64,000 nt of DNA from a virus (lineage: Duplodnaviria; Caudoviricetes), in the IMG/VR virus record IMGVR_UViG_3300014208_000024, positions 192,001 to 256,000 of that record; one strand, written 5' to 3'. This document shows positions 3,917 to 64,000 of this stretch, piece by piece. The notes beneath the pieces were generated by a model, which did no database searches, was not told the DNA's origin, and was given only the letters and a program-made list of their open reading frames with translations. The position numbers were made by a program, and so were the translations under genes. How positions within the stretch are numbered: position 1 is the stretch's first letter; every line of letters begins with the position of its first letter.

Positions 3917-4537
3917 ATGTACAACAGCCAGCACCTACAAGATAAATATATGAATGAAAATATCTTTAAAAATAAAAGAAATGGTGTTTTTTTAGATATT
4001 GGAGCCAATGATGGAATTGCTATAAACAATACTTTGTTTTTTGAAAAAGAACTTGGATGGACTGGGATATGTATAGAACCCTATCCTTCTATTTTTGAAA
4101 AACTAAAAAATAATAGAAGTTGCATTTGTATCAATGGTTGTATTGCTAAAGAAACGAAAAAAGATATTTTTTTAGAGGTTTCAGGATATCCAGCAATGCT
4201 TAGCGGATTAAAGTCGGAATATTGTGAAAAGCATTTACAAAGAATAGATTATGAAATAGGATTGTTTGGGGGATCTAAAAAAGAAATAGAAGTTCAATGC
4301 TACAACATAAACGAAGTCTTAACACAACATAATATGTTTAATATTGATTTTTGCAGCTTAGATATAGAAGGTGGAGAGTTTAATGTTCTTCAAACAATAG
4401 ATTTTGATAAAATAAACATACATGCTTTCAGTATAGAAAACGCATATAGTGAATCAAAATTTAAAAAATTTATGAAAACAAAAGGATATAAACTAATTGA
4501 TGTATTAGAGTGTGATGATATATATGTTAAACAATAA
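3917..4537 (+). CDS. FkbM-family methyltransferase
   Basis: FLDIGANDG...SNT-like NNTLFFEKELGWTGICIEP and IDFCSLDIEGGEFNVL motifs. Confidence 0.85.
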   Translation: MYNSQHLQDKYMNENIFKNKRNGVFLDIGANDGIAINNTLFFEKELGWTGICIEPYPSIFEKLKNNRSCICINGCIAKETKKDIFLEVSGYPAMLSGLKSEYCEKHLQRIDYEIGLFGGSKKEIEVQCYNINEVLTQHNMFNIDFCSLDIEGGEFNVLQTIDFDKINIHAFSIENAYSESKFKKFMKTKGYKLIDVLECDDIYVKQ

Positions 4538-4548
4538 TTTTTAAAGCT

Positions 4549-5199: not shown

Positions 5200-5201
5200 G
5201 C

Positions 5202-7160
5202 ATGAAACAAAAATATACAATACAACTTGTACAATTTAACAACAAATATGGTTCACAAGTTTATTTGCCTTATAGTGTTGGAGTATTATCAAGTTACGTA
5301 TCAACAGATAAGTTTATATTAGATAAATTCGAATTTAAAGAATTTGTTTTTATTACAGAAAAATTACATGATTTAATTAAAAGAATAGGAAAAGTCGATA
5401 TATTGGGAATTTCTTGTTATAATTGGAACTGGGCGTTAAGTTTAAAATTGGCCGAAGAGGTTAAAAAAAACAACCCAAGTTGTTTAATAATTTTAGGAGG
5501 TCCACAAGTTCCAAATGAAACATCTGATTTTTTTAAAAAAAATCCATTTATTGATATTACAGTTCATGGAGAAGGAGAAAAAACTTTCTATGAAATATTA
5601 AAAAATTATTCACAATCTAATTTTGAAACTCTTAAGCATATTTCTGGAACTACATTCTATGATAGAAAAAACGATGAGGTTGTAAAATCGCTTCAAAGGA
5701 ATTTTATTGAAGACTTAAGTAGTATGCAATCTCCATATCTAGATGGAACATTTGATGATTTGTTAAATAACAAAAAATATGCTTGGATGATAATTTGGGA
5801 AACAAACCGTGGATGTCCTTTTAAATGTTCTTTTTGTGATTGGGGTTCTGCCACTAAATCTAAAATTAGAAAGTTTGACAATGACAGATTGATAAAAGAA
5901 TTAGATTACTTTGCAGAAAAAAAAATAGAACTTATATTTGGAGCAGATGCTAATTTTGGAATCTTCAAAAGAGATAAAGATTATGCAATTAAAATGACAC
6001 AGAATAAAAAAAAATATGGATATCCAAAACAATTTAGAGTTTGCTTTACTAAAAATTCAACAGATAAAGTTTTTGAATTGTCTAAAATCTTTGATGATGC
6101 TGGAATGAATAAGGGAATATCGATAAGTATGCAATCGCTAAACGAACAGGCATTGGTTAACATACAAAGAACAAATATTAAAATGGAATTTTTTAATGAA
6201 TTACAAAAAAAATATACTACAAATGGACTTATAACATATACTGAATTGATATTACCACTTCCAGGAGAAACTTATGATTCTTTTGTAGAAGGAATAGATT
6301 CTTTATTAAATAACTCACAACATTCTGGTATAGTTGTATATAACTGTGTTATAATGCCAAATGCAAAAATGGGAGATAAAAATTACCAGCAAGAATTTGG
6401 ATTGAAAAATGTTGAAATTCCAATATTTCAAGCACATTCTGATTTTAAGGATTCAAGTTGTATTATAGAAAAAGAAGAAATTGTTGTTGAAACAAAAACT
6501 ATGAATAAATATGATTACATTAGATCATTTAAATATAGTTGGATAATTCAAAGCATGCACACTCTAGGAATGTTGCAAGTTGTTTCTATAATATTTAAAT
6601 ATCATTTTGGAATTAAATATTCAGAATTTTATAGTAGTATTATAAAATATGGAGAAGACAATCCTTGTACAATTATTGGAAAAGAATTAAAAAAGATTGA
6701 TACATTATTAAACGGGGTACTATCTGGAAGTGGATTTGATCAGGAAGTTCCTGGGTTTGAATCTGTGTCTTGGCCTCCAGAAGAAGCTACATATTTGAGA
6801 GTATCAGAGAAAATTGATGACTTTTATTTTGAAATAAAAAAATTTTTACAAAGTAAGTATAAAAATTTATTTATAGATAACAAAGTTTTATCTGATGTTT
6901 TCGATTACCAAAAAGCCAGAAGTGTGAGATTTGATAATCAAGATTCACAAAGCATTTTGTTGTCTTATGATATACATAACTTTTTTGAAAACTGTAGAGC
7001 TGGAATTATCGATGAACTTAAAAAAACAAAAATGAACTTAATAACAAATCCAAAAATGAGTTTTACGGATAAAAAAGAATTTTCAAGAGAAATTGTTTGG
7101 TATGGAAGAAAGGGTGGAAAATTCTTTCATCCAATTAAAAATAAAATTGATATAAAATGA
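5202..7160 (+). CDS. Cobalamin-binding radical SAM protein (class B methyltransferase-like)
   Basis: N-terminal B12-binding domain (YLPYSVGVL, DILGISCYNWN, IILGGPQV, GEGE) followed by ETNRGCPFKCSFCDWG (CxxxCxxC), DANFG and ELILPLPGET. Confidence 0.85.
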   Translation: MKQKYTIQLVQFNNKYGSQVYLPYSVGVLSSYVSTDKFILDKFEFKEFVFITEKLHDLIKRIGKVDILGISCYNWNWALSLKLAEEVKKNNPSCLIILGGPQVPNETSDFFKKNPFIDITVHGEGEKTFYEILKNYSQSNFETLKHISGTTFYDRKNDEVVKSLQRNFIEDLSSMQSPYLDGTFDDLLNNKKYAWMIIWETNRGCPFKCSFCDWGSATKSKIRKFDNDRLIKELDYFAEKKIELIFGADANFGIFKRDKDYAIKMTQNKKKYGYPKQFRVCFTKNSTDKVFELSKIFDDAGMNKGISISMQSLNEQALVNIQRTNIKMEFFNELQKKYTTNGLITYTELILPLPGETYDSFVEGIDSLLNNSQHSGIVVYNCVIMPNAKMGDKNYQQEFGLKNVEIPIFQAHSDFKDSSCIIEKEEIVVETKTMNKYDYIRSFKYSWIIQSMHTLGMLQVVSIIFKYHFGIKYSEFYSSIIKYGEDNPCTIIGKELKKIDTLLNGVLSGSGFDQEVPGFESVSWPPEEATYLRVSEKIDDFYFEIKKFLQSKYKNLFIDNKVLSDVFDYQKARSVRFDNQDSQSILLSYDIHNFFENCRAGIIDELKKTKMNLITNPKMSFTDKKEFSREIVWYGRKGGKFFHPIKNKIDIK

Positions 7161-11197: not shown

Positions 11198-12769
11198 ATG
11201 AAATTCAAAAACCTAAAACAGACAGATATTGATTATGCACGTAGAATCTACAAAGATAAATCAATGACTTTTCAACAGAGAATGAATATTTTAACAGATT
11301 ATTTCGAAAAAGATGAACGAACAATTCGCAGATGGTTTTCAAAAAAATTAGAAGGTTTTAAAGAAAAAGAAGATATAGTTGTAGAAAGCGAACATTTTAA
11401 ATTAGCAAAATTAGCACAAATTGATAAAGGGAGAAAATATTATTTAATTTCATCTGCTCAAAACAACACCCTTCCAAATGCAGAATTTATAAAAAACATA
11501 GAGGCATATAGTAATTTTTTAAAAGGACAATTAATTCTCGTTCCATATAGATACAAAAATCCAACATCAATATTTTCAAAAGCAGATAAAGAAAGTGAGT
11601 TTTGGCATCCGAGTCTTGTTAAATATTTGAACGCAAACAGAATAGATTTAAATTCAAAGTTAACTGTTCTTGGAGACATTAAAATTCAGCCTACAAATTC
11701 TGATCCATTGCGAGGAATTCAAGGTATAAGCTCTAAAAAAAGTTGTATTTTGGCACATCCATCAATACATTTTAAAACTATGCATGTTTTAGAAGGATAT
11801 GATAAAAAATTCATGATGACAACTGGCTCTGTAACAAAAGAAAACTATACTGACACTCTATTAGGAAAAAAAGGATCATTTAATCACACATATTCGTTTG
11901 TAATTGTAGAAATTGTTAATGAAGATAAATTTTATTGTAGACAAGTTACGGCAAATTCATCTGGATCTTTTACAGACCTTCATTTTAAAGTTTCTAATGG
12001 AGAAGTGAAAAAAATAAATAGTTGTGGTGCTGTTGTGTTTGGAGACATTCATTCGGGTGACCACAACAAAAAAGTTGTAGACTGTGGTATGGAATTGTGT
12101 AAAAAAATAAACCCCGAACACATTGTTCTTCACGATTTGTTTAATGCTAAATCCATAAATCATCACGAATTTAACAATCCTTTTATTCAATATGAATTGG
12201 AAAAAGAAAATAAAAATTCTTTGAAAAAAGAAATAGACGAGATGCTAAATTGGCTTGAACAATTAAATAAATTTAATGTTGTTGTTGTAAAAAGCAATCA
12301 TGATGATTTTGTATCAACATGGTTAATGCAAGATTGGCGCAAAATGAGCACCTGTAAAAATTCAATAGAATATGTAAAATTTGCATCAATATTATTAGAA
12401 GGAAAAGCAAAAAACGGAATTATTCCTTACTTAATAAATGAAAAATTTCCTAAAATCAAATGTTTAACGGCAAATGATAGTTTTATTGTTAATTCTTGGG
12501 AGCTTGCGCAACACAGTTCTGTTGGAAGTTCGGGAACAAGAGGGTCTTTAAATTCTTATAGTTCTTTAAGTATAAAATGTGTATTGGGACACGGGCATAC
12601 GGCCACTAGAAAAATGGGTACTATAATGGTTGGAACATTTACCAATTTACGTGTTGGATATAATAATGGCCCTAGCAACTGGGTAAACTCTTTAGTAATC
12701 ATTCACAATGACAAAAAAGCACAATTAATTATAATGGACGAGGATGGAAAATTTACTACTTTGAAATAA
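11198..12769 (+). CDS. Calcineurin-like metallophosphoesterase with N-terminal HTH-like region
   Basis: VVFGDIHSGD, IVLHDLFN, VVKSNHDDF and VLGHGHT motifs; N-terminal ERTIRRW helix. ATG at 11198 is used because the track's TTG start lies inside the promoter. Confidence 0.65.
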   Translation: MKFKNLKQTDIDYARRIYKDKSMTFQQRMNILTDYFEKDERTIRRWFSKKLEGFKEKEDIVVESEHFKLAKLAQIDKGRKYYLISSAQNNTLPNAEFIKNIEAYSNFLKGQLILVPYRYKNPTSIFSKADKESEFWHPSLVKYLNANRIDLNSKLTVLGDIKIQPTNSDPLRGIQGISSKKSCILAHPSIHFKTMHVLEGYDKKFMMTTGSVTKENYTDTLLGKKGSFNHTYSFVIVEIVNEDKFYCRQVTANSSGSFTDLHFKVSNGEVKKINSCGAVVFGDIHSGDHNKKVVDCGMELCKKINPEHIVLHDLFNAKSINHHEFNNPFIQYELEKENKNSLKKEIDEMLNWLEQLNKFNVVVVKSNHDDFVSTWLMQDWRKMSTCKNSIEYVKFASILLEGKAKNGIIPYLINEKFPKIKCLTANDSFIVNSWELAQHSSVGSSGTRGSLNSYSSLSIKCVLGHGHTATRKMGTIMVGTFTNLRVGYNNGPSNWVNSLVIIHNDKKAQLIIMDEDGKFTTLK

Positions 12770-13838
12770 TATTAGCCTTTAACAACATTTCTTCTATATT
12801 TTCATTATATTTTATAACTACAAGTAAAATTTTGTTGTTTTTACAATATTCCATTTTTATTTTATCTCTTTTTTGCTGAGATTTAAACATTTTTTCTCCA
12901 CCAAACCATTCAATGGGTTCATAGTGTTGTATTCCATGAAATTCTATGCAAATTTTTTTGTCTAACAAATAAAAATCAAAAGGAAGTGTATATTTATCAT
13001 AACAATCGATAAATCTTTTTTGCTGTTTAAAACAAATACCAAATTTAAGCAACATGAATTTAATTTGTGTTTCTCCAGTAGGTTCTTTACAAATTGGACA
13101 CCCTTTTCTTCGAAGGTGATTGTTTGGAGTCTGTAAAAATAAACCATGTTTATTACAAACTATACTTACTTTAATGTTGTCCCCTTTGTATTCTACAAAA
13201 TCATAATTATATTTATTGCCATGAATTTTTTCAAATTGCTTTATTAAAAAATCTGTTTTATTAACAGCATTGTGTTTAGTACATTTTACATGATAATTAT
13301 AAGGTAATATAAGGTGTTCTGTGTTATAATCTTTATTTATAATAGTTATTTTTGTATTGGCATTAATATAATTTATTTTTGAATAATCATATTTATCTCC
13401 ATGAATATTTTTAAATCTTTTAATTATATCATTATTTGAGTAATTAAAGTGTCTTCCATTACATTTTGGACATCCACTACCAAACATGTGACTTCCTGGC
13501 GTTTGTTTAAAATCTCCATGAAGTTTACATGTAATGATTATTTTTGTTTTTTCATCTTTATAAGTTACTTTTGAATAATCATATTTTTCTCCGTGCTTTT
13601 TAACAAATCTTTTTATTAAAACATCTAATGGGATTTTAAATTTATCAAATGCACATTTTTTACATATGCATCCATTTATGTGATCATGCGCTATTTGTAA
13701 AAATTCTCCATGTGTTGGACACACTATTTTTACTTTTGTGTGATTATTTATATATTCAACTAAACCATAATCATATTTATCTCCATGTACAAATTTAGCT
13801 TTTTCTACAAATTCTTGTGTTGTTAATTTTTTAGGCAT
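12756..13838 (-). CDS. Free-standing putative homing endonuclease: four HG(D/E/N)KY(D/N)Y repeats (DUF723-like) plus C-terminal PD-(D/E)XK/DUF559-like nuclease
   Basis: Repeats HGDKYDY..V.Y....K..I.C..HG.F.Q....H..G..C..C, of which repeat 3 lacks the Cys/His ligands; C-terminal LPFDFYL...KICIEFHGIQHY...RDKIK.EYC..NKI.L..IKY. ATG at 13838. Confidence 0.7.
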   Translation of the reverse strand: MPKKLTTQEFVEKAKFVHGDKYDYGLVEYINNHTKVKIVCPTHGEFLQIAHDHINGCICKKCAFDKFKIPLDVLIKRFVKKHGEKYDYSKVTYKDEKTKIIITCKLHGDFKQTPGSHMFGSGCPKCNGRHFNYSNNDIIKRFKNIHGDKYDYSKINYINANTKITIINKDYNTEHLILPYNYHVKCTKHNAVNKTDFLIKQFEKIHGNKYNYDFVEYKGDNIKVSIVCNKHGLFLQTPNNHLRRKGCPICKEPTGETQIKFMLLKFGICFKQQKRFIDCYDKYTLPFDFYLLDKKICIEFHGIQHYEPIEWFGGEKMFKSQQKRDKIKMEYCKNNKILLVVIKYNENIEEMLLKANIISK

Positions 13839-13839
13839 A

Positions 13840-13995
13840 TCATTTATTTTTAACCTGATTAAAATGTTCAATTAACAACCATTCAATAAACTTAGACTTA
13901 TTTTTTATTTCCTCTAAATGAATATATAATTCATTAGGTATTCTTACAGCAATTGTCTGTTTCTGCTTTTCTAAATTTATTTTTCTTCTTCCCAT
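13840..13995 (-). CDS. Small ribbon-helix-helix (RHH/CopG-like) DNA-binding protein, 51 aa, absent from the ORF track
   Basis: Hand translation MGRRKINLEKQKQTIAVRIPNELYIHLEEIKNKSKFIEWLLIEHFNQVKNK*: strand TIAVRIP, helix, then NKSKFIEWLL. Its TGA is 1 nt before the endonuclease ATG. Confidence 0.7.
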   Translation of the reverse strand: MGRRKINLEKQKQTIAVRIPNELYIHLEEIKNKSKFIEWLLIEHFNQVKNK

Positions 13996-14061
13996 AATAA
14001 ATAATTTTTAGTGTTTATTATAAATAGAAGAAAAAAATAAAAACAGAACAGGTCGTGTAAA

Positions 14062-14196
14062 TTATTTTTTGTTTTTTTCTATATATTCTTTTAACAATCG
14101 TATTATCAACTTACTACGATTATAATCGCCATCATCTAATTTTTTTATAATTTCTGGAGGAAGCGTTATGCTTAATTTTATTGATTTGTCTTTCAT
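14062..14196 (-). CDS. Small ribbon-helix-helix protein, 44 aa, absent from the ORF track
   Basis: Hand translation MKDKSIKLSITLPPEIIKKLDDGDYNRSKLIIRLLKEYIEKNKK* fits the RHH consensus (sitLp.el...Ld......rSkli..ll..y). Confidence 0.75.
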   Translation of the reverse strand: MKDKSIKLSITLPPEIIKKLDDGDYNRSKLIIRLLKEYIEKNKK

Positions 14197-17758: not shown

Positions 17759-18671
17759 CATACTTGTCTCTATATTTATAGACGACTTAAGTAATTTAAT
17801 CACATTAGAAGAAACTCTTTATAGTGTTTCTAAACAAAGTCATAATGTGGATTTATTAGTGTTGCACTCAGAAGATTTTTCTGAAGAACAACTTAATTTA
17901 TTAAAAAATGCACTTAACAATCCTAAACTTATTTTAAGAAAGAAAAATCAACAAGGGTTGTTAGAGGAACAAATATTAGAAACTGATGGAAGAGTAAATT
18001 ATTTTCTAAAATCATCTAGTATTAATAATTTTCCAAAAATTTTTAATGAAACATTTAATATTGCTTTAGAAAATGAATATGAATTCTTTTCTGCAATAGA
18101 ACCAAACGATGTTGTTGGGTTAAACTGGTTTTTGCAAGCAAACTTATATGCAATTGAAAATGAAAATATTTCAATTTTTTTCCCAATCATTAGAAATACA
18201 GTAAATGGAATTTTCAATGGTCTACTTAATGAAGCTCCTTGGGCTGAGGGACTCTCAGAAGAAGCTGGAAAAGTAGATATTAATCTTTTAAACCGCTTTA
18301 ATTGTATGGTTCCTATTGGTACAATGTTTAGAGTAAGTGGGATTAAAGAATATAGCGAACAAAAAGAAGATGGAAAATATTACCCATTCAAAGAAAGTAT
18401 AAAAATTAGTCATTATTATGAGTTTTTAATGAGAATGGTATATAATGATGTAAAAGCAATGTGTGTTCCAAGAATTGGATATGAATTTAAAGCAAAAAAC
18501 AGTGACGTTTTCAAACACATATATTGTAAAATTCCAGGTAATATTTCACAAATTCCAATAGAAAAAGGAGGAATAACTCCAGCTGAAGGAAAGTTTTGGA
18601 TGGATTTAGCTAAAAAAGAATATTTCTTTGATGAAGATAGAAATAAAGTCTATGAAGAAGAAAAACAGTAA
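17718..18671 (+). CDS. GT-A fold glycosyltransferase-like protein (GT2-like, divergent)
   Basis: LEETLYSVSKQ, FNIALENEYEFFSAIEPNDVV, FLMRMVYNDVKAMCVPRIGY pattern; follows the GT-B gene. Confidence 0.55.
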   Translation: MKESMNLKDLKNSNILVSIFIDDLSNLITLEETLYSVSKQSHNVDLLVLHSEDFSEEQLNLLKNALNNPKLILRKKNQQGLLEEQILETDGRVNYFLKSSSINNFPKIFNETFNIALENEYEFFSAIEPNDVVGLNWFLQANLYAIENENISIFFPIIRNTVNGIFNGLLNEAPWAEGLSEEAGKVDINLLNRFNCMVPIGTMFRVSGIKEYSEQKEDGKYYPFKESIKISHYYEFLMRMVYNDVKAMCVPRIGYEFKAKNSDVFKHIYCKIPGNISQIPIEKGGITPAEGKFWMDLAKKEYFFDEDRNKVYEEEKQ

Positions 18672-51371: not shown

Positions 51372-51563
51372 ATGAAAAAATTTATCACATTATTATTTGC
51401 ACTTTTAGTAGTTGCATTAATTTCCTGTAACTCTGGAGAAACAAAAGATGTTGTAGTGGATTCAACATTAGTTAGCATTGATACATGTATTGTAAAACCA
51501 GATTCATGCATGACATCTGTAGATACTTGTAAAAAAGTAGATTCCATAGTTGTAAAAAAATAA
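51372..51563 (+). CDS. Small lipoprotein (63 aa) with repeated D(S/T)x motifs
   Basis: MKK, a hydrophobic core and the lipobox ALISC (Cys19); mature part contains DST, DTC, DSC, DTC and DSI. Confidence 0.75.
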   Translation: MKKFITLLFALLVVALISCNSGETKDVVVDSTLVSIDTCIVKPDSCMTSVDTCKKVDSIVVKK

Positions 51564-51579
51564 ATCAGCAACAAATGGC

Positions 51580-51615
51580 AAAAAAACTCTCAAGTCGATG
51601 ATTTGGGAGTTTTTT
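51580..51615 (+). terminator. Intrinsic terminator after the lipoprotein gene
   Basis: AAAAAACTCTCAA-GTCGATGAT-TTGGGAGTTTTTT. Confidence 0.75.
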
Positions 51616-51632
51616 ATTTTTACACATTTTGT

Positions 51633-51663
51633 TTTGATTTTTCAATAAATAATACTATATTTG
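51633..51663 (+). promoter_or_regulatory. Bacteroidota-type sigma70 promoter, full consensus
   Basis: TTTG (51633-36), 19 nt, then TATATTTG (51656-63), upstream of primase ATG 51670. Confidence 0.65.
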
Positions 51664-51669
51664 CAAACT

Positions 51670-52668
51670 ATGGAAGATCAAAAATTCATAATACTGTCTA
51701 TTTTAAAAAATTTTCTCGGAGACCCCAAATCATTTAAAGACTTGGAAACTAGAAAACAGTTGGAATTTAATTGCCAAAGTCATCAGTGTAAAAACGATGT
51801 AGATAAATACAATTTAGCTTTCAATACAGATGAAAATATATACAAATGTTGGAAATGTAAAGACAGTGGAATAATTCACAAATTAGTTTATAAATATGGA
51901 TCAACAGAAGATAATAAAAGGTTAAAATTAATAATGCCTACATATACAGGTAATTATATAAATGTTTTTCGCAAACACACGATAAATCACAATTTAATTA
52001 CCTGCCCACTTCCAGAAGGGTATATTCCAATAACTTCAACAATAAAAACAACAATGCATAAATTGGCATATGATTATGTCATAAAAAAAAGAAAACTATC
52101 AATAGATCAATTGTTTCATAATAAAATAGGGTACACAGAAATTGGTGCTTATAGAAATAGAATAATAATCCCATCATTCAACGATTATGGTAATGTTAAT
52201 TATTTTGAAGCGAGAACATTTCTTAAAAACGTAAAACTACCATATTACAAACCAGATCAAAAGGCTTTTCCAGAAAAAAACATACCAGAGAAATATGATA
52301 TAATTTTTAACGAAATAAATATAAATTGGGATTTGCCCATTTATTTAGTTGAAGGAGTGTTTGATATGTTTAGAATTCCAAACTCCATTCCGATGCTTGG
52401 AAAAACACCATCTTGGTTATTAATATCAAAATTAATTGAACATAACTCTACAATTATTATATGTTTAGACGAAGATGCAATTAAAGACAGTTTTGAAATA
52501 TATGAACAGCTTTCGTCTTTAGGTTTGGATGTTTATTTTGTAGACTTAAAAGGATTGGGAGATATTTCATATCATTATGAACAAAACGGAGAAAAAGCAA
52601 TAGTTGAACTTTTGAAAAAAAGGAAAAAAATAGATTTTATTTATAAAATGTCAAGAATATTAAATTAA
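51670..52668 (+). CDS. DNA primase (Zn-binding domain + TOPRIM)
   Basis: FNCQSHQC...YKCWKC zinc site, YRNRIIIPSF...YFEAR, YLVEGVFD and ICLDEDA (DxD). ATG at 51670; the track's TTG start is within the promoter. Confidence 0.85.
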   Translation: MEDQKFIILSILKNFLGDPKSFKDLETRKQLEFNCQSHQCKNDVDKYNLAFNTDENIYKCWKCKDSGIIHKLVYKYGSTEDNKRLKLIMPTYTGNYINVFRKHTINHNLITCPLPEGYIPITSTIKTTMHKLAYDYVIKKRKLSIDQLFHNKIGYTEIGAYRNRIIIPSFNDYGNVNYFEARTFLKNVKLPYYKPDQKAFPEKNIPEKYDIIFNEININWDLPIYLVEGVFDMFRIPNSIPMLGKTPSWLLISKLIEHNSTIIICLDEDAIKDSFEIYEQLSSLGLDVYFVDLKGLGDISYHYEQNGEKAIVELLKKRKKIDFIYKMSRILN

Positions 52669-53549
52669 TTAGTTGTTTTTACAAACAGCTTGCTTTTAGA
52701 ATTTAATCCAGCAAGCCTAAAGTGTTCTTTAATTTCTAAAAATTTTTTATATTTTCTTTGTAATCCAATGTTGTCCAATTCTGTTGTTTTATAAATATAT
52801 TCACCAAAACTTAATAATGAATTTTTATTAGTAAATCTAAGATGAGAATATTTGTTTCCATTTTTAGTAATTATTCTTTTTATTGTATAACTACATTTTA
52901 ATTGTTTCATAAGATTTTCTAAATCAATCCAACATTGTTCATAGGAACCAGATATACTATATTGTTTACAAAATCCATTTGGATTTGTGTAAAAACAACC
53001 ATCTCCATCTGAAAATCCAAGAAAAAAATAACTTTTTAAATTATCAGGAATTTTATTTAATATTTTTGTTGGAGAAACCAATGATTTTTTATCATAATCA
53101 TTTTCTAATAAAAAATTATATATAAATGGATTTGTAGTTGACACCGATATTGTTTCTTTCCAATGTTTTTTATCTTTACGTTTATAATATTTCCATGTTC
53201 CAATTGACTCAAATAAAAATTTTATTTGTTTCATATCTTCACTTGCTATTTTTAAAATTGTAATACAGGAATTATATTTTTTATTATGAGCAATACACCC
53301 ATCTGCCCACAAAAAACCTAATATATAAGCCGACTCTGGAGTTGATATATTTGTAATTTTGTTGTGATTTATATTAAACTTATCATTTTTTATATAAGAT
53401 AGATTTAATTTTTGCACCATCCATTTAACATTAGATTTAGTTTTTTTTAAAAAGTCTATACAATACTTCATTTTCTTTTCTTTGTAATTTTTTTTTAAAA
53501 AACACACCTCTTCTTTTGTCCACTTTTTAGACATAACACGATCTTTCAT
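52665..53549 (-). CDS. Free-standing double-motif LAGLIDADG homing endonuclease
   Basis: SAYILGFLWADGCI and YFFLGFSDGDGCF motifs; N-terminal KWTKEEVCFLKKNY helical extension; C-terminal GLQRKY.KF. Confidence 0.85.
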   Translation of the reverse strand: MKDRVMSKKWTKEEVCFLKKNYKEKKMKYCIDFLKKTKSNVKWMVQKLNLSYIKNDKFNINHNKITNISTPESAYILGFLWADGCIAHNKKYNSCITILKIASEDMKQIKFLFESIGTWKYYKRKDKKHWKETISVSTTNPFIYNFLLENDYDKKSLVSPTKILNKIPDNLKSYFFLGFSDGDGCFYTNPNGFCKQYSISGSYEQCWIDLENLMKQLKCSYTIKRIITKNGNKYSHLRFTNKNSLLSFGEYIYKTTELDNIGLQRKYKKFLEIKEHFRLAGLNSKSKLFVKTTN

Positions 53550-53559
53550 GGTTGTTTTA

Positions 53560-53736
53560 TTAATTATTTAACATTTGCTCCATAGATTCTCTGACAAATT
53601 CAGATATTTTAATAATTTTACCTCGTTGAACACTTTGCTCAATTGTTTTTTTAACACATCTTTGATATAAATCATCACTTAATCTAAATGTTAATGTCCT
53701 AAACTCTATTGCTTTATTTTCATCTTCTTTTTTCAT
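53560..53736 (-). CDS. Small ribbon-helix-helix protein, 58 aa, absent from the ORF track
   Basis: Hand translation MKKEDENKAIEFRTLTFRLSDDLYQRCVKKTIEQSVQRGKIIKISEFVRESMEQMLNN*. Its stop lies 10 nt before the LAGLIDADG ATG. Confidence 0.7.
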   Translation of the reverse strand: MKKEDENKAIEFRTLTFRLSDDLYQRCVKKTIEQSVQRGKIIKISEFVRESMEQMLNN

Positions 53737-53833
53737 AATTGTTTTTTAAATTGTTTTGTCTTACATAAATATATGAAAAAATTATAAAATAAAAATATTT
53801 AAAACAATTCTTTTAAAAACAGAATAAATGTTA

Positions 53834-53841
53834 TATCTTTG
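53834..53841 (+). promoter_or_regulatory. Bacteroidota-type -7 box (TATCTTTG)
   Basis: TAnnTTTG 15 nt upstream of ATG 53857. Confidence 0.55.
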
Positions 53842-53856
53842 CATAAATAAAATTTT

Positions 53857-56800
53857 ATGAAAAATAACATTTCCATAGCACATATAAGTGACCAGCATAT
53901 CCGATTTTCATCAAGACACCAAGAATATAAAGAAGTTTTTGAAAGATTATATGAGGATTTAAAAAAAATAAAACCAGATTACATAATTTGTACAGGAGAT
54001 TTAAATCATTTAAAAATAAACATGTCGCCTTCGTCTATTGATTTGGCATCTGAATTTCTAATTAGTTTAGCAAAAATCTCTCCAACATATTTAATATTAG
54101 GAAATCATGATCTTAATGTCCAATGTAAGGAGCAAGGAGATACTGTATCTCCAATAATAGATATTGCAAATAAATTTTATGATTTAACAAATCCAACACC
54201 TAGAATAGATAACAAAGTAGCTCATATTGTTTCAGAAAGAAATAAGGAAAAAATAGACTTTTCAAAAAAAGGAATTTATTTATTTCCAGAAAGTGGATTT
54301 TACAAAATTTCAAATAAACTTATATTTGGAGTTTATTCATGTAAAGACAATAAAATATTAACATTAGACAAAAAAGAACCAGGTGTTAAATATGTAGCAT
54401 TATATCACGGAAAAATAAAGGGAGCTAGAGGGGATAATGGATATGAATTAATGGGTGATGATTTATTAAATATATCTACATTTAACAATTTTGATGCTGT
54501 TTTAATGGGAGATATTCATTTATATCAATCATTTCAAAATGATTCTATTGCATATTCAGGCGCTCTCATTCAACAAGATTATGGAAGTGATATAAATTGT
54601 GGATATTTATTGTGGAGTTTAAATTTGGAAAGCGAAACTGTAACTCACCAAAGAAAATATATTTTAAATGATTATGGTTTTGCAAAAATAACAATTGCAA
54701 AAGGAGAAAATATAGAAGAAAGAATTGAAAACATTAAATTCAGTAACAATAAAAAACAAACAAAAGTTTATATAATCTGGGAAGATTATGAGGAAAATTA
54801 TTCTACAGAAAAAGAATCTCAAATTGCAAAATTAGTAAAAGAAAAATTTGGTTGTGACGTTGTGAAGGTAGAATTTTCTGAAATCAAAAAAATACAACAA
54901 GACAATACTGATGTAGCAGATTCAAAAAATCAAGAAACATTTTTACAACAAATATCTACATATCTAAAAGAAATAAATCCAGATGAAGATGAGTCTATAA
55001 TAAAAGAAGTTCTTTCTTTGGCAGAGTTTATTGATAAAGAATTGGAGATTACAGATAAAGTTGAAGATGTTAAGCTTTGGGATGTTGATAGTATTGAAAT
55101 TTCTAACATATTTTCATTTCCAGAAAAACCAATTTTTATTAATCTGGAAAAAATGAGAGGTTCTACTGGAGTGTTTGGTAAAAACTATTCTGGTAAATCC
55201 AATGTTGTCAAAGCAATTGTTTGGGGATTATATCAACACATTCTTGGAGGCGGAAGTGCAAAGAAAATTGTAAACATTTACACATCTTCTAATAAGGGAT
55301 ATGTAAAAATTCACCTTACAATAGATGGTGAAAAATATTATTTAAAAAGAGAAGTTATAACAAAAGTCGATAAATACGGAGAATCTTCAAACTCTTATCC
55401 AATTGAATATAGAAAACTGATAACTGACGACGATGGAAAACAAAAGTGGGTGCCAGAAATATCAGATAAAAAAGCAAACACAAAAGTAGAAGTTAAAAAC
55501 ATTGTTCTTTCTGCAATTGGAACAGTCGAAGATTTCACAAAAGTTTGTCTACAGACTCAAGGCGGAAAAGAAGATTATATTAATCAAGATCAACAACCAA
55601 AAAACGATTTGGTTAATAAATATCTTGGATTAGAACAGTTTAGAGACAGATATGATTATGGAAACAAAACATTTAACGATGTAAAGAAAAAACAAAAAGA
55701 GCTTGGAGATATAGTATCCCTTCAAGCAAAAGTATTAGAAGTTGAAGCATTAATAACAAAAATTCAGTCAGAATACGATGCTTTAGTTATTGAAAAAAAC
55801 CATTCTGAATCAAAAAAAGATGTTGTTGATAATAAAATTTTAGAATTGTCTAAAAATTTAAAACAGTATGTTAATCTATTAAGAGATGAAATTAACAACA
55901 GACAAGATATATTAAACAACATAAACACATTAGAAAATCAAATAAAAGAAGATGAGGTAAAACACAAATTTCTTTTTGAATGGATTTCTGTAAATTTTAA
56001 AAAAGAATTGCCATTCGATGAAAACGAAACTGTTGAAAAGTTAAATTCAGAATTAACAAAAGAAAGCAATCAATTTACAAAAGAAAGAAATAAATATGTT
56101 GAGATAGAAAAATGGATTAATGAAAATCCAATTAGAAATTTAGAAAGTATAGAGGGGTTTGATTTAATTATTCAAAATTTAAATTTTCAAATAGCAAATT
56201 TACAAGCAAAACTTCCAACATATAAAGGAGAACAGTGCCCAACTTGCGGAAATATTACACAAAAACCAAATATTGAAATGTATAACCAATGTTTGAGTGA
56301 AATTTCAACACAAACTGGAGTTTTAAATAGCTATATAAATGCAATTAACAAACATCGTGAAGACACCACTAATAACAAAAATGTTGAAATACAAAATTCA
56401 AATCTATTAGCTCTTCGTGCTACACTAACATCCAGGAAAGAGAAAAAGGAAAAATTAATAGAAAAAATATCTTTAATATCACAATCTAAAGAAATTTTAA
56501 TACACAATCAATTAGTAGAAGATAATAACAAATTGTTGCAAACTACAAAAAACAACATTGATATTAAAATAAAATTAATAGAAAAGTTAAAATTAAATCT
56601 TGAAAAAATAGTTCAAAATGAAGATGCAAAAAAACATAACATATCAATAGAAAAAGAAATTTTTGAATTACAAGAACAAAGTAAGGCATATAAATTTTCT
56701 ATTTATGGACTTTCACAACAAATAACCAATAAAAATGGGGACCTTAGAGTTGAAAAAAATAATTTGGAAAATTATAATAATAAACTCGAAGAAGTAAAGG

Positions 56801-57348
56801 CTGCAGAAAAAACATATAAAAAGCATTCTTTATATTTACAGGCAGTTCATAGAGATGGTATTCCAGCCAAAATTATTAGAAGAAAACTTCCAATAATTAA
56901 CAACAAAATTAACAGTATATTAAGCACGATTGTTAATTTTAGGATAGAAATGAGCGTAACAACAAAGGGTGATATTATAGAGGAGTTTTATTTCAGTCCA
57001 GACAAATCAGACACTCTTCCTCTTGCATTCGCTTCTGGTGCCCAAAAATTCATTTCTAGCGTTGTTATAAAGGATGCATTACATTATATGAGTAATCTTA
57101 TTAAACCGTCTTTAAACATAATTGATGAAGGATTTGGAACACTTGATGATGATTTGATTTCTGGAATCATAACTGTTTTGCAGTATCTTAAAAACAAATA
57201 TAAAAATGTTTTGATTATTACTCACAGAAATGAAATTAAAGATAGTGTTAATAATATTATAGAAGTTTATAAAACCTATGACAATATTTCACAAGAGGTT
57301 TTAAACACAAACGAACATGCAGGAATAACTCAAATTAATATATCATAA
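53857..57348 (+). CDS. Fused Mre11/SbcD nuclease - Rad50/SbcC ATPase (T4 gp47+gp46-like) in one ORF
   Basis: AHISDQHI, CTGDLNH, LGNHD, LYHG, MGDIH (phosphoesterase), then GVFGKNYSGKS (Walker A), Q-loop, coiled coil with CPTCG zinc hook, ASGAQK signature, IIDEGFGTLD (Walker B/D-loop) and IITH. Confidence 0.9.
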   Translation: MKNNISIAHISDQHIRFSSRHQEYKEVFERLYEDLKKIKPDYIICTGDLNHLKINMSPSSIDLASEFLISLAKISPTYLILGNHDLNVQCKEQGDTVSPIIDIANKFYDLTNPTPRIDNKVAHIVSERNKEKIDFSKKGIYLFPESGFYKISNKLIFGVYSCKDNKILTLDKKEPGVKYVALYHGKIKGARGDNGYELMGDDLLNISTFNNFDAVLMGDIHLYQSFQNDSIAYSGALIQQDYGSDINCGYLLWSLNLESETVTHQRKYILNDYGFAKITIAKGENIEERIENIKFSNNKKQTKVYIIWEDYEENYSTEKESQIAKLVKEKFGCDVVKVEFSEIKKIQQDNTDVADSKNQETFLQQISTYLKEINPDEDESIIKEVLSLAEFIDKELEITDKVEDVKLWDVDSIEISNIFSFPEKPIFINLEKMRGSTGVFGKNYSGKSNVVKAIVWGLYQHILGGGSAKKIVNIYTSSNKGYVKIHLTIDGEKYYLKREVITKVDKYGESSNSYPIEYRKLITDDDGKQKWVPEISDKKANTKVEVKNIVLSAIGTVEDFTKVCLQTQGGKEDYINQDQQPKNDLVNKYLGLEQFRDRYDYGNKTFNDVKKKQKELGDIVSLQAKVLEVEALITKIQSEYDALVIEKNHSESKKDVVDNKILELSKNLKQYVNLLRDEINNRQDILNNINTLENQIKEDEVKHKFLFEWISVNFKKELPFDENETVEKLNSELTKESNQFTKERNKYVEIEKWINENPIRNLESIEGFDLIIQNLNFQIANLQAKLPTYKGEQCPTCGNITQKPNIEMYNQCLSEISTQTGVLNSYINAINKHREDTTNNKNVEIQNSNLLALRATLTSRKEKKEKLIEKISLISQSKEILIHNQLVEDNNKLLQTTKNNIDIKIKLIEKLKLNLEKIVQNEDAKKHNISIEKEIFELQEQSKAYKFSIYGLSQQITNKNGDLRVEKNNLENYNNKLEEVKAAEKTYKKHSLYLQAVHRDGIPAKIIRRKLPIINNKINSILSTIVNFRIEMSVTTKGDIIEEFYFSPDKSDTLPLAFASGAQKFISSVVIKDALHYMSNLIKPSLNIIDEGFGTLDDDLISGIITVLQYLKNKYKNVLIITHRNEIKDSVNNIIEVYKTYDNISQEVLNTNEHAGITQINIS

Positions 57349-60484: not shown

Positions 60485-60820
60485 ATGGAATTAGAAGAAC
60501 TTAATGGATTTGTAAATTTAAATGAATTAGATCTTCTTTACAAACTCATAGAAATCGCAGAATCGAATAAAAAAGATACTGAAAGAGTTCTCAGGGGAGA
60601 AAGTGCTGCTGGAATAAGAGTTCGAAATAAACTACAAGATATTAGAACGTTGTGCGAAATTATAAGAGATAAAATACAAATCAGAAAAGGCGCAGATTGG
60701 GGAAATAAAAGAATTTCTGCGTTAGAAAAAGCAATTCAAGAAGCTCAAAAAAAGATAATAAGTGATAGAGAGTTGATTGAAAAAAGAAAAAGGGAAAGGA
60801 TTGCTAGACTTGCAAGATAA
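60485..60820 (+). CDS. Hc1/'histone H1-like' small DNA-binding protein (Bacteroidota-type) with basic C-terminal extension
   Basis: DTERVLRGESAAGIRVRNKLQDIRTLCEIIRDKIQ resembles the G.kaAG.RvRk.lqel..l...iR signature (recalled, not searched). Confidence 0.55.
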   Translation: MELEELNGFVNLNELDLLYKLIEIAESNKKDTERVLRGESAAGIRVRNKLQDIRTLCEIIRDKIQIRKGADWGNKRISALEKAIQEAQKKIISDRELIEKRKRERIARLAR

Positions 60821-60824
60821 AAAT

Positions 60825-63800
60825 ATGGCAAAAAAGAAAAAAACCGATACCGATACCAAAGAAGTTAGTGTTGTAAAAATAAGAAAACTAAGGGTTAACT
60901 TTGAGTTGAGGTATGATTATTTAAAAATTCTTACAGAATACATAAAAAGGTTGCCAAAAGAACACAGATCTGTTAGAAAGGATAGTGTTATAGGAATGGA
61001 TGGTAATCCAAAAGATGAATGGGTAAGAATTATTAGCGAAGCAAGAATGGGTGAAATTTTAGCTTTTTTAATTGATAATAAAATAAGATTTGCCTTCGAA
61101 AACATTACCCCAGATGTATTAGAAAGATTGAGAAATGAGTTTGTAGAAAGACAAAGAAAAATTGCAGAAGTATTAAAACTGAAGGCTGAAATGCTAGACG
61201 TTTCAATGGAGGATTACTCATTCATGAAAATCCAACCTTATGAATATCAAAAAAAAGCTGTAAAATTTTTTGAAATTAATAATGGAATTTCTATATTAGG
61301 AGATCAACCTGGAGTTGGGAAAGCTCAAAATTTAGATTCATTATTAGCAACACCTAATGGCTGGATTAGAATGGGGGACGTAAAAATAGGTCAAGAAATT
61401 TTTAGTCAAGATGGTTTGATCTACAATGTCAATGGAGTGTTTCCTAAAGGTATTAATTCAACATACAGAGTTACTTTTAATGATGATTTTTACGTTGACT
61501 GTAACTTAGAACACCTGTGGATAGTAAGAGATGTAAATAGACGAAGAAGAAACACGGGGTGGATAACAAAAACTTTGAAAGAACTTATTGATTCTGGACT
61601 AAGCTATTCTCATTCAAAAAATAGCGTAAGAGCAAAAAGCAATAGAAAACCTGTTTTAAAATGGGAAATTCCTATTACTAATCCAGTAAATTACTCTGAA
61701 AAAAACTTTATTGTTAACCCTTATGTGTTAGGCACATTGATTGGTGATGGGTGTTTGGTTCTTGATTCTATTTGCATTTCAATTTCAGACTCACAACTGC
61801 AGATTAAAAATTTAATAGAAAGTAGACTCCCAGAAGAATTTAAATTAAGAAAAACTAAATTTTACGAAAAATCATGTCCTCAATATTATATAACAAGAAA
61901 TCATTCAATAGGAAGAAATATTATAAAATCCAAGATTGTAGATTTAAAACTAAATGTAAAATCAGGAAATAAATTCATTCCAGATATTTACTTGCGTGGA
62001 AATGTAGATCAGCGAATTGAACTTTTAAGAGGACTTATGGATACAGATGGTAGTGCTGATAAAAACAGAGTTCATTATCACACAAAATCAAAACAACTAG
62101 CCTTTGATGTCGCCGAACTCGTTCAATCTTTAGGAGGGCAAGCATTAATTAAAAAATATGACAGAACTAAAAAAAACAAAGGAATTGAATGGAGAGTTAA
62201 TATCAGAATTAACATATGTCCATTTTACTTAAATGAAAAAATTAAAGAGTGGAATATTATAAAAAGAAATTATTGTTCTAGATATATTAAAAAAGTGGAA
62301 TATGTTTGTGATGAAGAACACCAGTGTATATCTGTAAATTCACCAAATAAAACATATTTAACTAACAATTATATAGTAACTCACAATACAGCTCCCGCAT
62401 TTGCTTATGCAATAAAACACAAGTTGAAAACACTTGTAGTTTGTCCAGCGTCACTAAAATTGATGTGGAGAAAAGAAATTTTAAAATTCTCCAATGAAAA
62501 AGCATTTGTATATAAATTTAAACCAAAAAAGAAAAGTAAAATAATAGCGTATACAAAAAACGAATCTTTATTTCATATTACAAATTATGAATCTATTGAA
62601 TCATACATAAAACTCGAATATCACCACAAATGCAGTGGGAACATGCTTCAATCAACAGGAAAAATGGGGAAATGTACGTGGGAACAAACTGACCTCATAA
62701 AGCAGTATAAAAAATGCCCTATTTGTGAAAACACTGGATCAATTAAAACAAGAATAGTGAGTTTGGTTTCATTTCAGGATTCGTTTAGTCAAGAAATAGA
62801 CCCGTCAAACTACGACTTAATCATTATTGATGAATGCCATAGAATGAAAGAATTAAAGACTACCTGGACAAAAATAATTCACAAAGCATTTTCAAAAATT
62901 CCAAAAAAAATTCTCTTGTCTGGAACTGTAATAAAAAGTCGTCCGTTTGAATTTTTCTCTACTCTAAATTTTATATTACCAGAGGAATGGAAAAATTCTC
63001 ATGAATTTGGAGTTAGATATGGTGCAGGATATCAAGATAATTATGGGTGGAAATATGATGGGGCATCTAATTTAGAAGAGTTGTTCACAAGGGTTTCTTC
63101 TTATTTTTTAAGAAGACTTAAAAAAGATGTTTTAAAAGAGCTTCCAGAAAAAACGTATTTAGAAATTCCAATTGAACTTGACGATAAAGAATATTCTGAA
63201 TATCAAAAACTTTTAAATGAAGTAAAAAAAGAAATAGTTGATGGTAAGGAGATTGAAAAAAAGGATTCTTATTTAGCAAAAATACACAAACTTAAAATGT
63301 TTACTGGAAGAATTAAAGTAAACAAGGTTAAAGAAATGATTCAAGATATAATTGAAAGTGGAGAAAAGGTTGTCGTTGTTTCTGACTATGTAGAACTAGC
63401 AAAAGAAATATTTAAAGAATTTCAAGAAATAGCAGTTTTACATACTGGGGAAATGAATGAAGTTGAAAAACAAGAATCTGTAGATAAGTTTCAAGAGGAT
63501 AAAAATATAAAATTATTTTCTGGAATGATACTGGCTTCTGGAGTCGGTCTTACTTTGACAGCATCTAGTAAACTTTTTAAATTAGGATTTGCATGGTCAC
63601 CAGCAGATGAAGAACAAATATGTGATAGAATTCACAGAGCTGGCGCCACTTCCGATACAATAGAAATTATAACCCCATATTGTCAAGACACTGTTGACGA
63701 AGATATAATGGAACTTTTAAATGATAAATCATTTATAGTGACAAAAACACTTGATAACACAGAATTTAAAAAAGAAAGGAAAATAGTTGATCAAAGTATT

Positions 63801-63836
63801 TTCAAACAACTTGTTGAAAGATTAAAAGATAAATAA
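60825..63836 (+). CDS. SNF2-family (SMARCAL1/HARP-like) helicase interrupted by an intein
   Basis: ILGDQPGVGK|T (Walker A split by the intein), LVVCPASLK..W.KEI, IIIDECH, ILLSGT...RP.E, LRRLKKDVL.ELPEK, GVGLTLT and WSPADEEQ..DRIHRAG. ATG at 60825. Confidence 0.9.
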   Translation: MAKKKKTDTDTKEVSVVKIRKLRVNFELRYDYLKILTEYIKRLPKEHRSVRKDSVIGMDGNPKDEWVRIISEARMGEILAFLIDNKIRFAFENITPDVLERLRNEFVERQRKIAEVLKLKAEMLDVSMEDYSFMKIQPYEYQKKAVKFFEINNGISILGDQPGVGKAQNLDSLLATPNGWIRMGDVKIGQEIFSQDGLIYNVNGVFPKGINSTYRVTFNDDFYVDCNLEHLWIVRDVNRRRRNTGWITKTLKELIDSGLSYSHSKNSVRAKSNRKPVLKWEIPITNPVNYSEKNFIVNPYVLGTLIGDGCLVLDSICISISDSQLQIKNLIESRLPEEFKLRKTKFYEKSCPQYYITRNHSIGRNIIKSKIVDLKLNVKSGNKFIPDIYLRGNVDQRIELLRGLMDTDGSADKNRVHYHTKSKQLAFDVAELVQSLGGQALIKKYDRTKKNKGIEWRVNIRINICPFYLNEKIKEWNIIKRNYCSRYIKKVEYVCDEEHQCISVNSPNKTYLTNNYIVTHNTAPAFAYAIKHKLKTLVVCPASLKLMWRKEILKFSNEKAFVYKFKPKKKSKIIAYTKNESLFHITNYESIESYIKLEYHHKCSGNMLQSTGKMGKCTWEQTDLIKQYKKCPICENTGSIKTRIVSLVSFQDSFSQEIDPSNYDLIIIDECHRMKELKTTWTKIIHKAFSKIPKKILLSGTVIKSRPFEFFSTLNFILPEEWKNSHEFGVRYGAGYQDNYGWKYDGASNLEELFTRVSSYFLRRLKKDVLKELPEKTYLEIPIELDDKEYSEYQKLLNEVKKEIVDGKEIEKKDSYLAKIHKLKMFTGRIKVNKVKEMIQDIIESGEKVVVVSDYVELAKEIFKEFQEIAVLHTGEMNEVEKQESVDKFQEDKNIKLFSGMILASGVGLTLTASSKLFKLGFAWSPADEEQICDRIHRAGATSDTIEIITPYCQDTVDEDIMELLNDKSFIVTKTLDNTEFKKERKIVDQSIFKQLVERLKDK
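61323..62387 (+). mobile_element. Intein (355 aa, Ala1, class-3-type WCT triplet) with LAGLIDADG endonuclease
   Basis: Starts AQNLDSLLATPNGW after GVGK and ends IVTHN before Thr. Block B CNLEHLW, block F EHQCISV, block G VTHN; endonuclease motifs PYVLGTLIGDG and ELLRGLMDTDGS. Confidence 0.9.
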
Positions 63837-63854: not shown

Positions 63855-63998
63855 TTAAAAAATATTATTTTTTTTCATTATATCTTTTATTTTTTTAATT
63901 TCTTTATAATTAATTCTTAATAATTTTATATTATTTTTTTTACAAAATTCCGTTTTTTGATTATCTCTATATTGAAGAGATTTTAAATTTTTACTAAA
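63855..63998 (-). CDS. C-terminus of another DUF559/PD-(D/E)XK-type endonuclease, truncated by the window edge
   Basis: Reverse-strand translation ...FSKNLKSLQYRDNQKTEFCKKNNIKLLRINYKEIKKIKDIMKKNNIF* matches the C-terminus of 12756..13838 (FKSQQKRDKIKMEYCKNNKILLVVIKYNE). Confidence 0.65.
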   Translation of the reverse strand, partial: FSKNLKSLQYRDNQKTEFCKKNNIKLLRINYKEIKKIKDIMKKNNIF

Positions 63999-64000
63999 TA

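Follow-up and report, generated by a model that had tools for sequence, protein, structure and literature searches.

A ribbon-helix-helix gene ahead of an antisense LAGLIDADG gene in a jumbo phage: a candidate portable autorepressor module of phage homing elements

How can a homing endonuclease gene that stands antisense between two conserved phage genes be expressed without harm to the genome that carries it? Free-standing homing genes are usually viewed as single genes that borrow the expression signals of their hosts, and the avoidance of harm to the carrier genome has been worked out only in a few T4 cases. The question is raised by a stretch of 64,000 nucleotides (the window; positions 192,001 to 256,000 of IMG/VR record IMGVR_UViG_3300014208_000024). 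The record consists of one viral contig (372,283 bp; 28.7% G+C), obtained from a groundwater metagenome assembly and representing an uncultured jumbo phage. Two sequencing runs are listed as containing this DNA, both from groundwater metagenomes and one of them the probable source; RNA runs are not among them. In the window, a ribbon-helix-helix (RHH) gene of 58 amino acids (aa), here termed RHH58, precedes a free-standing LAGLIDADG gene, and an earlier note on the sequence had proposed that the two form a self-regulating selfish element. Insertion of the pair, its coinheritance, the RHH fold of the small protein, purifying selection on its gene, exclusive linkage of such RHH genes to nucleases, and conserved boxes in cis are all established by the present analysis. 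The reading that is considered probable, though well short of secure, is that the cassette is self-contained by virtue of a portable promoter-operator-RHH autorepressor module, in which RHH58 would bind the boxes and shut off its own transcript. The cassette and its flanks are laid out as follows, position 1 being the first letter of the window:

52669..53856, minus strand: whole inserted cassette, 1,188 bp, from the primase stop to the SbcCD start
53560..53736, minus strand: RHH58, the 58-aa ribbon-helix-helix gene, first in the cassette (structure model, structural matches, selection)
52665..53549, minus strand: LAGLIDADG homing endonuclease gene, free-standing, double-motif, 294 aa (Pfam, PHROG)
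51661..52668, plus strand: primase gene, left flank (phrog_47, 2.6e-24; 72 related loci)
53857..57348, plus strand: gene for a fused SbcD/SbcC-like nuclease-ATPase, right flank (Pfam Metallophos, 1.5e-11; phrog_77, 9e-35)

RHH58 and the LAGLIDADG gene lie on the same strand with a gap of 10 nt, and the stop codons of the LAGLIDADG gene (minus strand) and the primase gene (plus strand) overlap. The layout described in the earlier note (58-aa open reading frame [ORF], 10-nt gap, LAGLIDADG gene, antisense orientation, contact with the primase stop) is confirmed in all its coordinates.

Comparison with related viruses indicates that the pair is an insertion. Among 72 viral loci encoding the primase that were retrieved, eight close relatives (L001, L002, L003, L005, L006, L008, L009, and L010) have an empty site at which the two genes abut or overlap, with 0 to 10 nt between the primase stop and the SbcCD start and primase identities of 65 to 87%. 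The site is filled only in L007 among close relatives, where both genes are present (RHH58, 91% identity; nuclease, 79% identity). In alignments, the 1,188-bp insert begins directly behind the primase stop and ends just short of the SbcCD start. With eight sites empty and one filled, the gene shows the mobility that characterizes LAGLIDADG homing endonucleases. Synonymous divergence (dS) from the L007 copies is 0.48 (RHH58) and 0.67 (nuclease), compared to 1.5 for the primase and 1.45 for SbcCD. With a dS below half that of its flanks, the cassette is younger than the genomes that host it, as expected of a homing element. Joint gain and loss of RHH gene and nuclease, a check put forward in the earlier note, is seen in relatives both for this cassette and for a second one described below, each being present or absent as a whole unit.

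The primase-SbcCD region is an insertion hot spot. Other inserts occupy this joint in more distant relatives, some of them nuclease genes in the sense direction without an RHH gene. The fused SbcD/SbcC gene is split after residue ~226 in three more distant relatives (L017, L019, and L029). The inserts there measure 0.5 to 2.4 kb and contain additional ORFs, among them Vsr-like nuclease genes and one that resembles a methyltransferase gene.

Selection and homology both indicate that RHH58 is a real gene. Between the window and L007, residues 10 to 58 differ by nine synonymous and no nonsynonymous changes (core omega of 0; core 100% identical), while residues 1 to 9 form a variable tail that changes freely; omega is 0.10 for RHH58 versus 0.20 for its nuclease. 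When 1.84 billion representative proteins were searched with a profile, 22 more of 46 to 65 aa proved to share the pattern, and the RHH58 family comprises 24 members, including the window protein, with conservation of R18, S45, and R49. A chance ORF is ruled out by this pattern of synonymous change together with the family of homologues. The Pfam profile RHH_3 is matched by 10 of the 24 members (best, 8.6e-6) and RHH_1 by 7 of the 24 (best, 4e-5).

The predicted structure agrees with these profiles. An AlphaFold (AF2) monomer model built with the family alignment has a pLDDT of 89.5, an extended segment at residues 11 to 20, and helices at residues 21 to 38 and 44 to 57. In an exhaustive structural comparison (VIA), the top 50 of 50 matches are RHH proteins (Z, 6.3 to 3.7; root mean square deviation [rmsd], 0.8 to 2 Å; 41 to 47 residues), the best being TraM (Z, 6.3; rmsd, 1.6 over 46 residues) and others including NikR, AmrZ, PutA, TacA, Arc, omega, MetJ, and ParG. 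Foldseek against the PDB returned only nonsignificant E values, although the eight top matches are nevertheless RHH proteins. The homodimer model scores 0.49, versus 0.00 for the best control; among solved proteins, 20 of 30 pairs attain this dimer-score mark, as does 1 of 23 single chains, and the dimer runs have a contact agreement of at least 77% and a pLDDT of at least 75. The modeled interface consists of an antiparallel strand at residues 13 to 19 and of helix B packed on helix B, with the closest contacts at 15-17, 16-16, and 18-14. Because RHH dimers are well known among solved structures, this result is a likeness and not proof. The RHH fold that the earlier note had assigned is thus upheld, as all 50 best structural matches are RHH proteins and the modeled homodimer forms an RHH beta-ribbon; in silico, with a strand-helix-helix chain and a beta-ribbon dimer, RHH58 is a genuine RHH protein.

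A PDB sequence search with the family profile gave nothing meaningful, tblastn of RHH58 against phages gave one spurious match only, and a word-indexed protein search returned two proteins only. No RHH58-family relative was found in 185,579 prokaryote genomes by a limited search with short exact peptide patterns. A 425,361-bp GenBank contig of a “Candidatus Pacearchaeota archaeon” metagenome-assembled genome is exactly as long as an IMG/VR viral contig, and the two were matched at one and the same peptide (L114/L135); the supposed archaeal contig may belong to a large phage that was placed in an archaeal bin.

The 294-aa protein matches LAGLIDADG_3 in two stretches (Pfam, 3.4e-10) and phrog_4645 (8e-23) and retains the acidic Asp in both motifs (..LGFLWADG.. 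and ..LGFSDGDG..), from which it is classed as a double-motif LAGLIDADG enzyme. Its nearest annotated relatives, at 25 to 33% identity, are phage “mobile intron” and “DOD homing endonuclease” genes. It shares family and 25 to 33% core identity with the intron-borne I-MsaII-type enzymes of Staphylococcus phages and with ORF036 of Bacillus phage 0305phi8-36, but those genes are annotated as single genes and are often intron-borne, whereas the window gene is intergenic, antisense, and located behind an RHH gene. Rfam, searched over 51500..54500, detected neither an intron nor another RNA family, and an intron-borne nuclease is ruled out because the insert is intergenic, antisense, and without an Rfam match. 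blastn of the cassette region against phage records gave no match. The N terminus (residues ~6 to 62; 53370..53549) carries an additional helix-turn-helix (HTH)-like module (phrog_323, 7.6e-4). By eye, a “W-T-x-E-E ... L-x-x-N-Y” HTH-like module is common to this protein and an unrelated Vsr-like nuclease (L128:3155-3925), which itself sits behind an RHH58-family gene, and this suggests that DNA-binding modules may be shuffled among these nucleases.

Conservation extends to the DNA upstream of RHH58, where three candidate elements are found:

53765..53773, minus strand: promoter-like element TATATTTAT, recognized by conservation, with a putative function
53756..53763, minus strand: box 1, TAAGACAA, candidate operator for the RHH protein, immediately behind the promoter-like element
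53739..53746, minus strand: box 2, AAAAACAA, degenerate second copy before the start codon, weaker than box 1

TATATTTAT or a close variant stands ahead of the RHH58-family genes, with its position kept in 13 of 14 loci. Within a few bases after the promoter-like element, a TAA(G/T)ACA box is present in every one of the 14 RHH58-family loci, window included; its position relative to the ATG is −24 to −31 in 13 loci, and L128 has it at −14. As a control, the TAA[GT]ACA word occurs within 70 nt upstream of 4 of 421 genome ORFs of ≥100 aa. A second, looser box is found at −9 to −14 in 10 of the 14 loci and at −21 in L118. The upstream sequence to which the earlier note had drawn attention, TGTCTTACA, corresponds to box 1, which is conserved throughout the family. 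As the proteins of these loci are only 35 to 48% identical and the nucleases differ, the box is kept beyond what descent alone would explain.

In the loci examined, the RHH58 family is linked to nucleases wherever the downstream sequence is available. In RHH58-family loci elsewhere, a nuclease gene lies directly downstream in 11 of 12, with stop and start usually overlapping; in the twelfth, the contig ends right behind the RHH gene. The nucleases are of Vsr/DUF723 “KYDYS” type (seven loci), HNH “NHYTNLQPLC” type (three loci), and HTH plus Vsr-like type (one locus). Across the 372-kb genome, all nine matches to RHH hidden Markov models precede nuclease genes and none is located elsewhere; RHH-nuclease cassettes number seven in total. 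Another single RHH gene (RHH_3, 2.7e-4) precedes a nuclease with four NUMOD3 motifs, and an Arc-like 61-aa gene precedes an HNH-type gene.

The Arc-like 61-aa gene belongs to a cassette (G000:C1:17354-18930; L082:854-2430) in which it is followed by a truncated-looking HNH-type gene of 167 aa, an RHH-B remnant (~18014-18115; RHH-B is described below), and an HNH-type gene of 271 aa, and the whole looks compound or decaying. In L120, L121, L123, L124, and L126 (~2500-5900 each), an RHH58-family gene and a Vsr-type nuclease gene lie antisense between two minus-strand ORFs that resemble the halves of an RNase R/II-like protein (a 509- to 530-aa RNB part and a 124-aa S1 part), and the cassette may have split this gene.

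The earlier note had also described the same architecture at 12.7 to 14.2 kb with an unrelated nuclease. A Vsr/DUF723-type nuclease gene does follow RHH coding sequence there, but it is preceded by two RHH-like ORFs rather than one:

14062..14196, minus strand: RHH-A, 44 aa, first gene (Pfam RHH_1, 0.015; four paralogues in the genome)
14012..14026, minus strand: spacer motif TATTTATAATAAACA between RHH-A and RHH-B, kept across ~20 distinct viral loci
13840..13995, minus strand: RHH-B, 51 aa, overlapping the nuclease start by 32 nt
12756..13871, minus strand: Vsr/DUF723-type nuclease gene, 371 aa, zinc-module array plus Vsr-like part (phrog_559, 5e-77; phrog_9084, 3e-23; Pfam DUF4379 and DUF723)

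RHH-A and RHH-B are paralogous (hhalign, 98.4%; E, 1e-14), and the RHH58 family is a remote relative of RHH-B (hhalign, 67.6%; E, 5e-5). The RHH-B model is of lower confidence (pLDDT, 72), and its best matches are mostly RHH proteins (Z up to 4). Compared with L083, RHH-B has an omega of 0.025 and its nuclease one of 0.32. The three-gene unit is present in G002 and absent in G001, G003, and G005, and a prokaryote genome scan with RHH-B found only two partial RHH-B-like matches.

The pair is repeated widely, with four copies in the genome and about 32 loci in other viral contigs; the search with RHH-B yielded 33 viral loci. RHH-A is found 27 to 99 bp upstream of RHH-B in 29 of the ~32 loci. Every locus has an ORF of ≥136 aa whose start lies at most 56 nt ahead of the stop of RHH-B or 2 nt behind it. 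This ORF is a nuclease gene except in L091, where a 136-aa ORF without a known family is followed by a Vsr-type nuclease gene. The adjacency of RHH genes and homing endonucleases anticipated in the earlier note therefore holds in all genome matches and, elsewhere, in 11 of 12 RHH58-family and about 31 of 32 RHH-B loci, with the RHH gene directly upstream. The nucleases behind RHH-A/RHH-B are of Vsr/DUF723 type (phrog_559), HNH/EndoVII-like (phrog_1035), LAGLIDADG (L087; LAGLIDADG_3, 9e-16), weakly GIY-YIG-like (L093; GIY-YIG at 0.0015, under the Pfam cutoff), GIY-YIG-like by eye only (L080; a 226-aa protein without a family match), or members of further nuclease PHROGs. The idea that the nuclease is exchangeable is thereby supported for the Vsr/DUF723, HNH/EndoVII-like, and LAGLIDADG types and is weaker for the GIY-YIG/NUMOD3-like type. 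The computational checks suggested in the earlier note all turned out in favor of its reading. Direct homology between the LAGLIDADG proteins of the window and of L087 was considered and set aside, as they share a PHROG but the pairwise BLASTP match is weak (E, 0.003).

These tandem cassettes have cis elements of their own. A TATATTTA-like element stands ahead of RHH-A. The spacer that follows RHH-A and separates it from RHH-B (13996..14061) often has a short hairpin and T-run and then TATTTATAATAAACA, with the same spacer in ~20 viral loci; in the genome, exact copies of TATTTATAATAAACA occur only in three of the four RHH-A/RHH-B cassettes, the fourth having a variant with one base changed. 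Because of the hairpin/T-run and TATTTATAATAAACA between them, RHH-A and RHH-B may be separate transcription units.

Cassettes with an RHH gene tend to oppose their surroundings. In the genome, six of these seven cassettes run antisense to the genes on either side, versus 5 of 13 nuclease genes that lack an RHH gene, and in viral loci with codirectional flanks 17 of 21 cassettes are antisense, although not all of these loci are independent. Antisense orientation fits a unit that needs its own promoter and its own control.

A mechanism can be proposed on this basis. A free-standing homing endonuclease cassette inserted antisense where primase and SbcCD adjoin would form an expression unit of its own, made up of the promoter-like element, one or two TAAGACAA-type boxes, RHH58, and the LAGLIDADG gene. 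Most likely, RHH58 would dimerize and bind the boxes, whose location coincides with the probable start of transcription, and the RHH-nuclease transcript would be switched off after RHH58 builds up (negative autoregulation). The nuclease would then be made briefly and at low dose, and antisense transcripts running into the primase would be kept in check. The module would be portable, with RHH58 and the related RHH-A/RHH-B families preceding nucleases of at least four families, and the nuclease gene would become transcriptionally autonomous and self-limiting. DNA binding at the boxes, repression, and benefit to the element are what we infer here, binding and repression from the general behavior of RHH proteins of this size. 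In a broader form of the proposal, to which an even chance is given, the RHH gene and its conserved promoter/operator constitute a portable “expression platform” that has been joined separately by LAGLIDADG, HNH/EndoVII-like, Vsr/DUF723-type, and probably GIY-YIG/NUMOD3 nucleases; the result would be a widespread class of two- and three-gene self-regulating phage homing elements in which the regulator permits antisense insertion into essential operons and outlasts the nuclease.

Several observations weigh against the autorepressor module or its generality. About 13 homing-type nuclease genes in the genome (approximately two-thirds) lack an RHH gene, and five of these are also antisense. The RHH module is therefore an optional add-on, not a general property. 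The orientation contrast within the genome amounts to a trend (Fisher P = 0.07). RHH58 of the window itself falls below significance against the Pfam and PHROG RHH models (phrog_6506, Arc-like, 0.035). A sigma-70 scan found promoter sites no more common than in shuffled sequence, and a terminator was not found; the promoter assignment is drawn from conservation, and an alternative reading of the boxes is that they mark the start of transcription or form a leader element inherited with the module. Both RHH genes are more tightly constrained than their nucleases (omega of 0.10 versus 0.20 and of 0.025 versus 0.32), which cautions against a narrow reading. Furthermore, the nuclease gene of L007 (7005-7889, minus strand) has an in-frame TAA at codon 108, where the window has CAA, while the adjoining RHH gene is intact and its core unchanged; the RHH protein may thus serve something besides nuclease control. 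The phage may benefit from it even where the nuclease is not functional, e.g., by silencing antisense transcription into the primase.

That last possibility can be taken further, to an RHH role unrelated to the nuclease, in which the protein would silence outward or antisense transcription and so protect primase and SbcCD or would have been co-opted as a phage regulator. The complete conservation of the RHH core beside the premature stop in L007, the tighter constraint on RHH genes, and the antisense position of most cassettes relative to essential neighbors are all in line with it. However, the 8-mer GTAAGACA is not overrepresented in the genome (7 occurrences versus 12.6 expected), and its composite with the promoter-like element occurs only at the cassette; an RHH gene of these families without an adjoining nuclease was never found in the examined loci or in the genome. 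The single L007 stop may represent early, perhaps very recent, nuclease decay or an assembly or sequencing error. Such a role is improbable. Slightly better placed, if still unlikely, is a timer that would delay the nuclease rather than damp it, either because the RHH protein first activates and then represses the promoter or because RHH-A controls the RHH-B/nuclease promoter. The C proteins of restriction-modification systems are small DNA-binding regulators that are encoded before the endonuclease, cotranscribed with it, and act on their own promoter. A regulator gene that comes first and is coupled to the nuclease resembles these operons, and a timer would also suit the tandem cassettes, with two promoter-like elements, a frequent hairpin plus T-run after RHH-A, and a motif before RHH-B only, as well as the two boxes of unequal quality upstream of RHH58. 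Activation is nevertheless without support, and the boxes lie downstream of the promoter-like element, the typical position of a repressor. C proteins, moreover, are HTH proteins with C-boxes that serve a methylase/endonuclease pair, whereas the protein here is of RHH fold and the cassette has no methylase gene. By analogy, RHH58 may still work like a C protein.

Two further explanations tie the RHH protein to the nuclease by other means. As an accessory factor in homing, the protein would attach to DNA at the target or close to it and aid cleavage or repair, or it would shield the carrier genome from its own nuclease. RHH proteins do assist relaxases and partition systems, and the structural matches include TraM, ParG, and omega; yet no TAA[GT]ACA box was found within 200 bp of the empty target site in any of the eight relatives, which weakens this reading, one RHH family serves nucleases with very different DNA-binding modules and insertion sites, and the conserved box moves with the cassette, beside its promoter. 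The accessory role is accordingly held to be quite improbable, and the least credible of the alternatives is a toxin-antitoxin-like pair, in which the RHH protein would bind and neutralize the nuclease and its loss would kill the host or the phage genome. The analogy with toxin-antitoxin modules drawn in the earlier note has some appeal, since the order of a small RHH gene and a toxic enzyme, overlapping or close, mimics type II modules (ParD, CopG-like, TacA, VapB), as do the fold and the probable autoregulation, and many RHH antitoxins are among the top structural matches. RHH antitoxins such as ParD2 are described as having an ordered DNA-binding domain and a disordered C-terminal domain that neutralizes the toxin. 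In the proteins of 44 to 58 aa considered here, the RHH fold fills nearly the whole chain, and the analogy does not hold up well because there is no tail beyond the DNA-binding fold and hence no room for toxin binding. A single RHH family would need to neutralize four unrelated nuclease folds, and the RHH gene persists next to the broken L007 nuclease. In contrast to type II modules, the partner role is taken here by site-specific nucleases with several different folds, and the cassette behaves like a homing insert rather than an addiction module.

Compared with described homing elements, the autorepressor module favored here would combine familiar features with a new component. In T4, control of homing genes is achieved through borrowed or embedded promoters, ribosome binding site hairpins, translational coupling, or use of the nuclease as its own repressor, and all homing endonuclease genes except segD are co-oriented with their neighbors, many using host promoters (PMC2988022). 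The window cassette shares with the T4 seg and mob genes intergenic insertion between conserved genes, presence/absence polymorphism, and a nuclease whose expression needs limits and timing, and its candidate operator recalls I-TevI autorepression, in which an operator overlaps the element's own promoter (PMC2988022). A dedicated regulator gene, however, is present here, whereas none is described for T4, and the cassettes here are mostly antisense.

The nearest published parallel is found in IS605-family transposons, in which an Arc-like RHH protein represses gene expression, according to the title of the report (bioRxiv 10.64898/2026.09.24.754181), and the TnpB nuclease acts as a programmable homing endonuclease, according to the abstract of a related paper. 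As far as these descriptions go, both systems encode a tiny RHH protein inside a selfish element with a homing-type nuclease, but the IS605 element is a bacterial transposon with TnpA/TnpB and a guide RNA, whereas the phage cassettes have protein-only nucleases of four families. The genes next to RHH58 are those for LAGLIDADG, primase, and SbcCD, not tnpA or tnpB. In full-text searches of literature linking RHH, CopG, Arc, or MetJ with homing endonucleases, such phage cassettes were not found described. A dedicated, exchangeable regulator in homing endonuclease cassettes would be a previously undescribed mode of self-control.

If the proposal is correct, a dedicated and exchangeable regulator module adds a new layer to the control of homing genes and explains how such genes can reside antisense inside replication operons. 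It would also provide a simple annotation rule for hundreds of unannotated phage ORFs of 45 to 60 aa and a set of compact repressor/operator pairs with directly testable candidate sites. The parallel with the Arc-like repressors of IS605 elements suggests a general strategy of nuclease-driven selfish elements.

One further element of the insert concerns its right-hand neighbor:

53834..53841, plus strand: TATCTTTG, within the insert, 15 nt before the SbcCD start (read from the sequence; TATATTTG in L007)

TATCTTTG, which is conserved in L007, fits the −7 consensus of Bacteroidota, TAnnTTTG, and a possible role is that of a replacement promoter element for SbcCD.

Other nuclease-related genes of the genome lie apart from the RHH cassettes. 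A Vsr/DUF723-type nuclease gene at the end of the window (63855..64000 onward; G000:C1:255855-256742, minus strand) is antisense to its neighbors and has no RHH gene upstream. LAGLIDADG_3 matches within two long stop-free frames of 1019 and 945 aa (window 60777..63836, plus strand, and G000:C1:145525-145773) are probably inteins with homing endonuclease domains, judging from their position inside these frames. Two paralogous genes of 226 to 233 aa with a weak Vsr-like C terminus (G000:C1:50689-51369 and 71886-72587) lie among tRNA-like spurious ORFs and may be nuclease genes inserted in a tRNA cluster.

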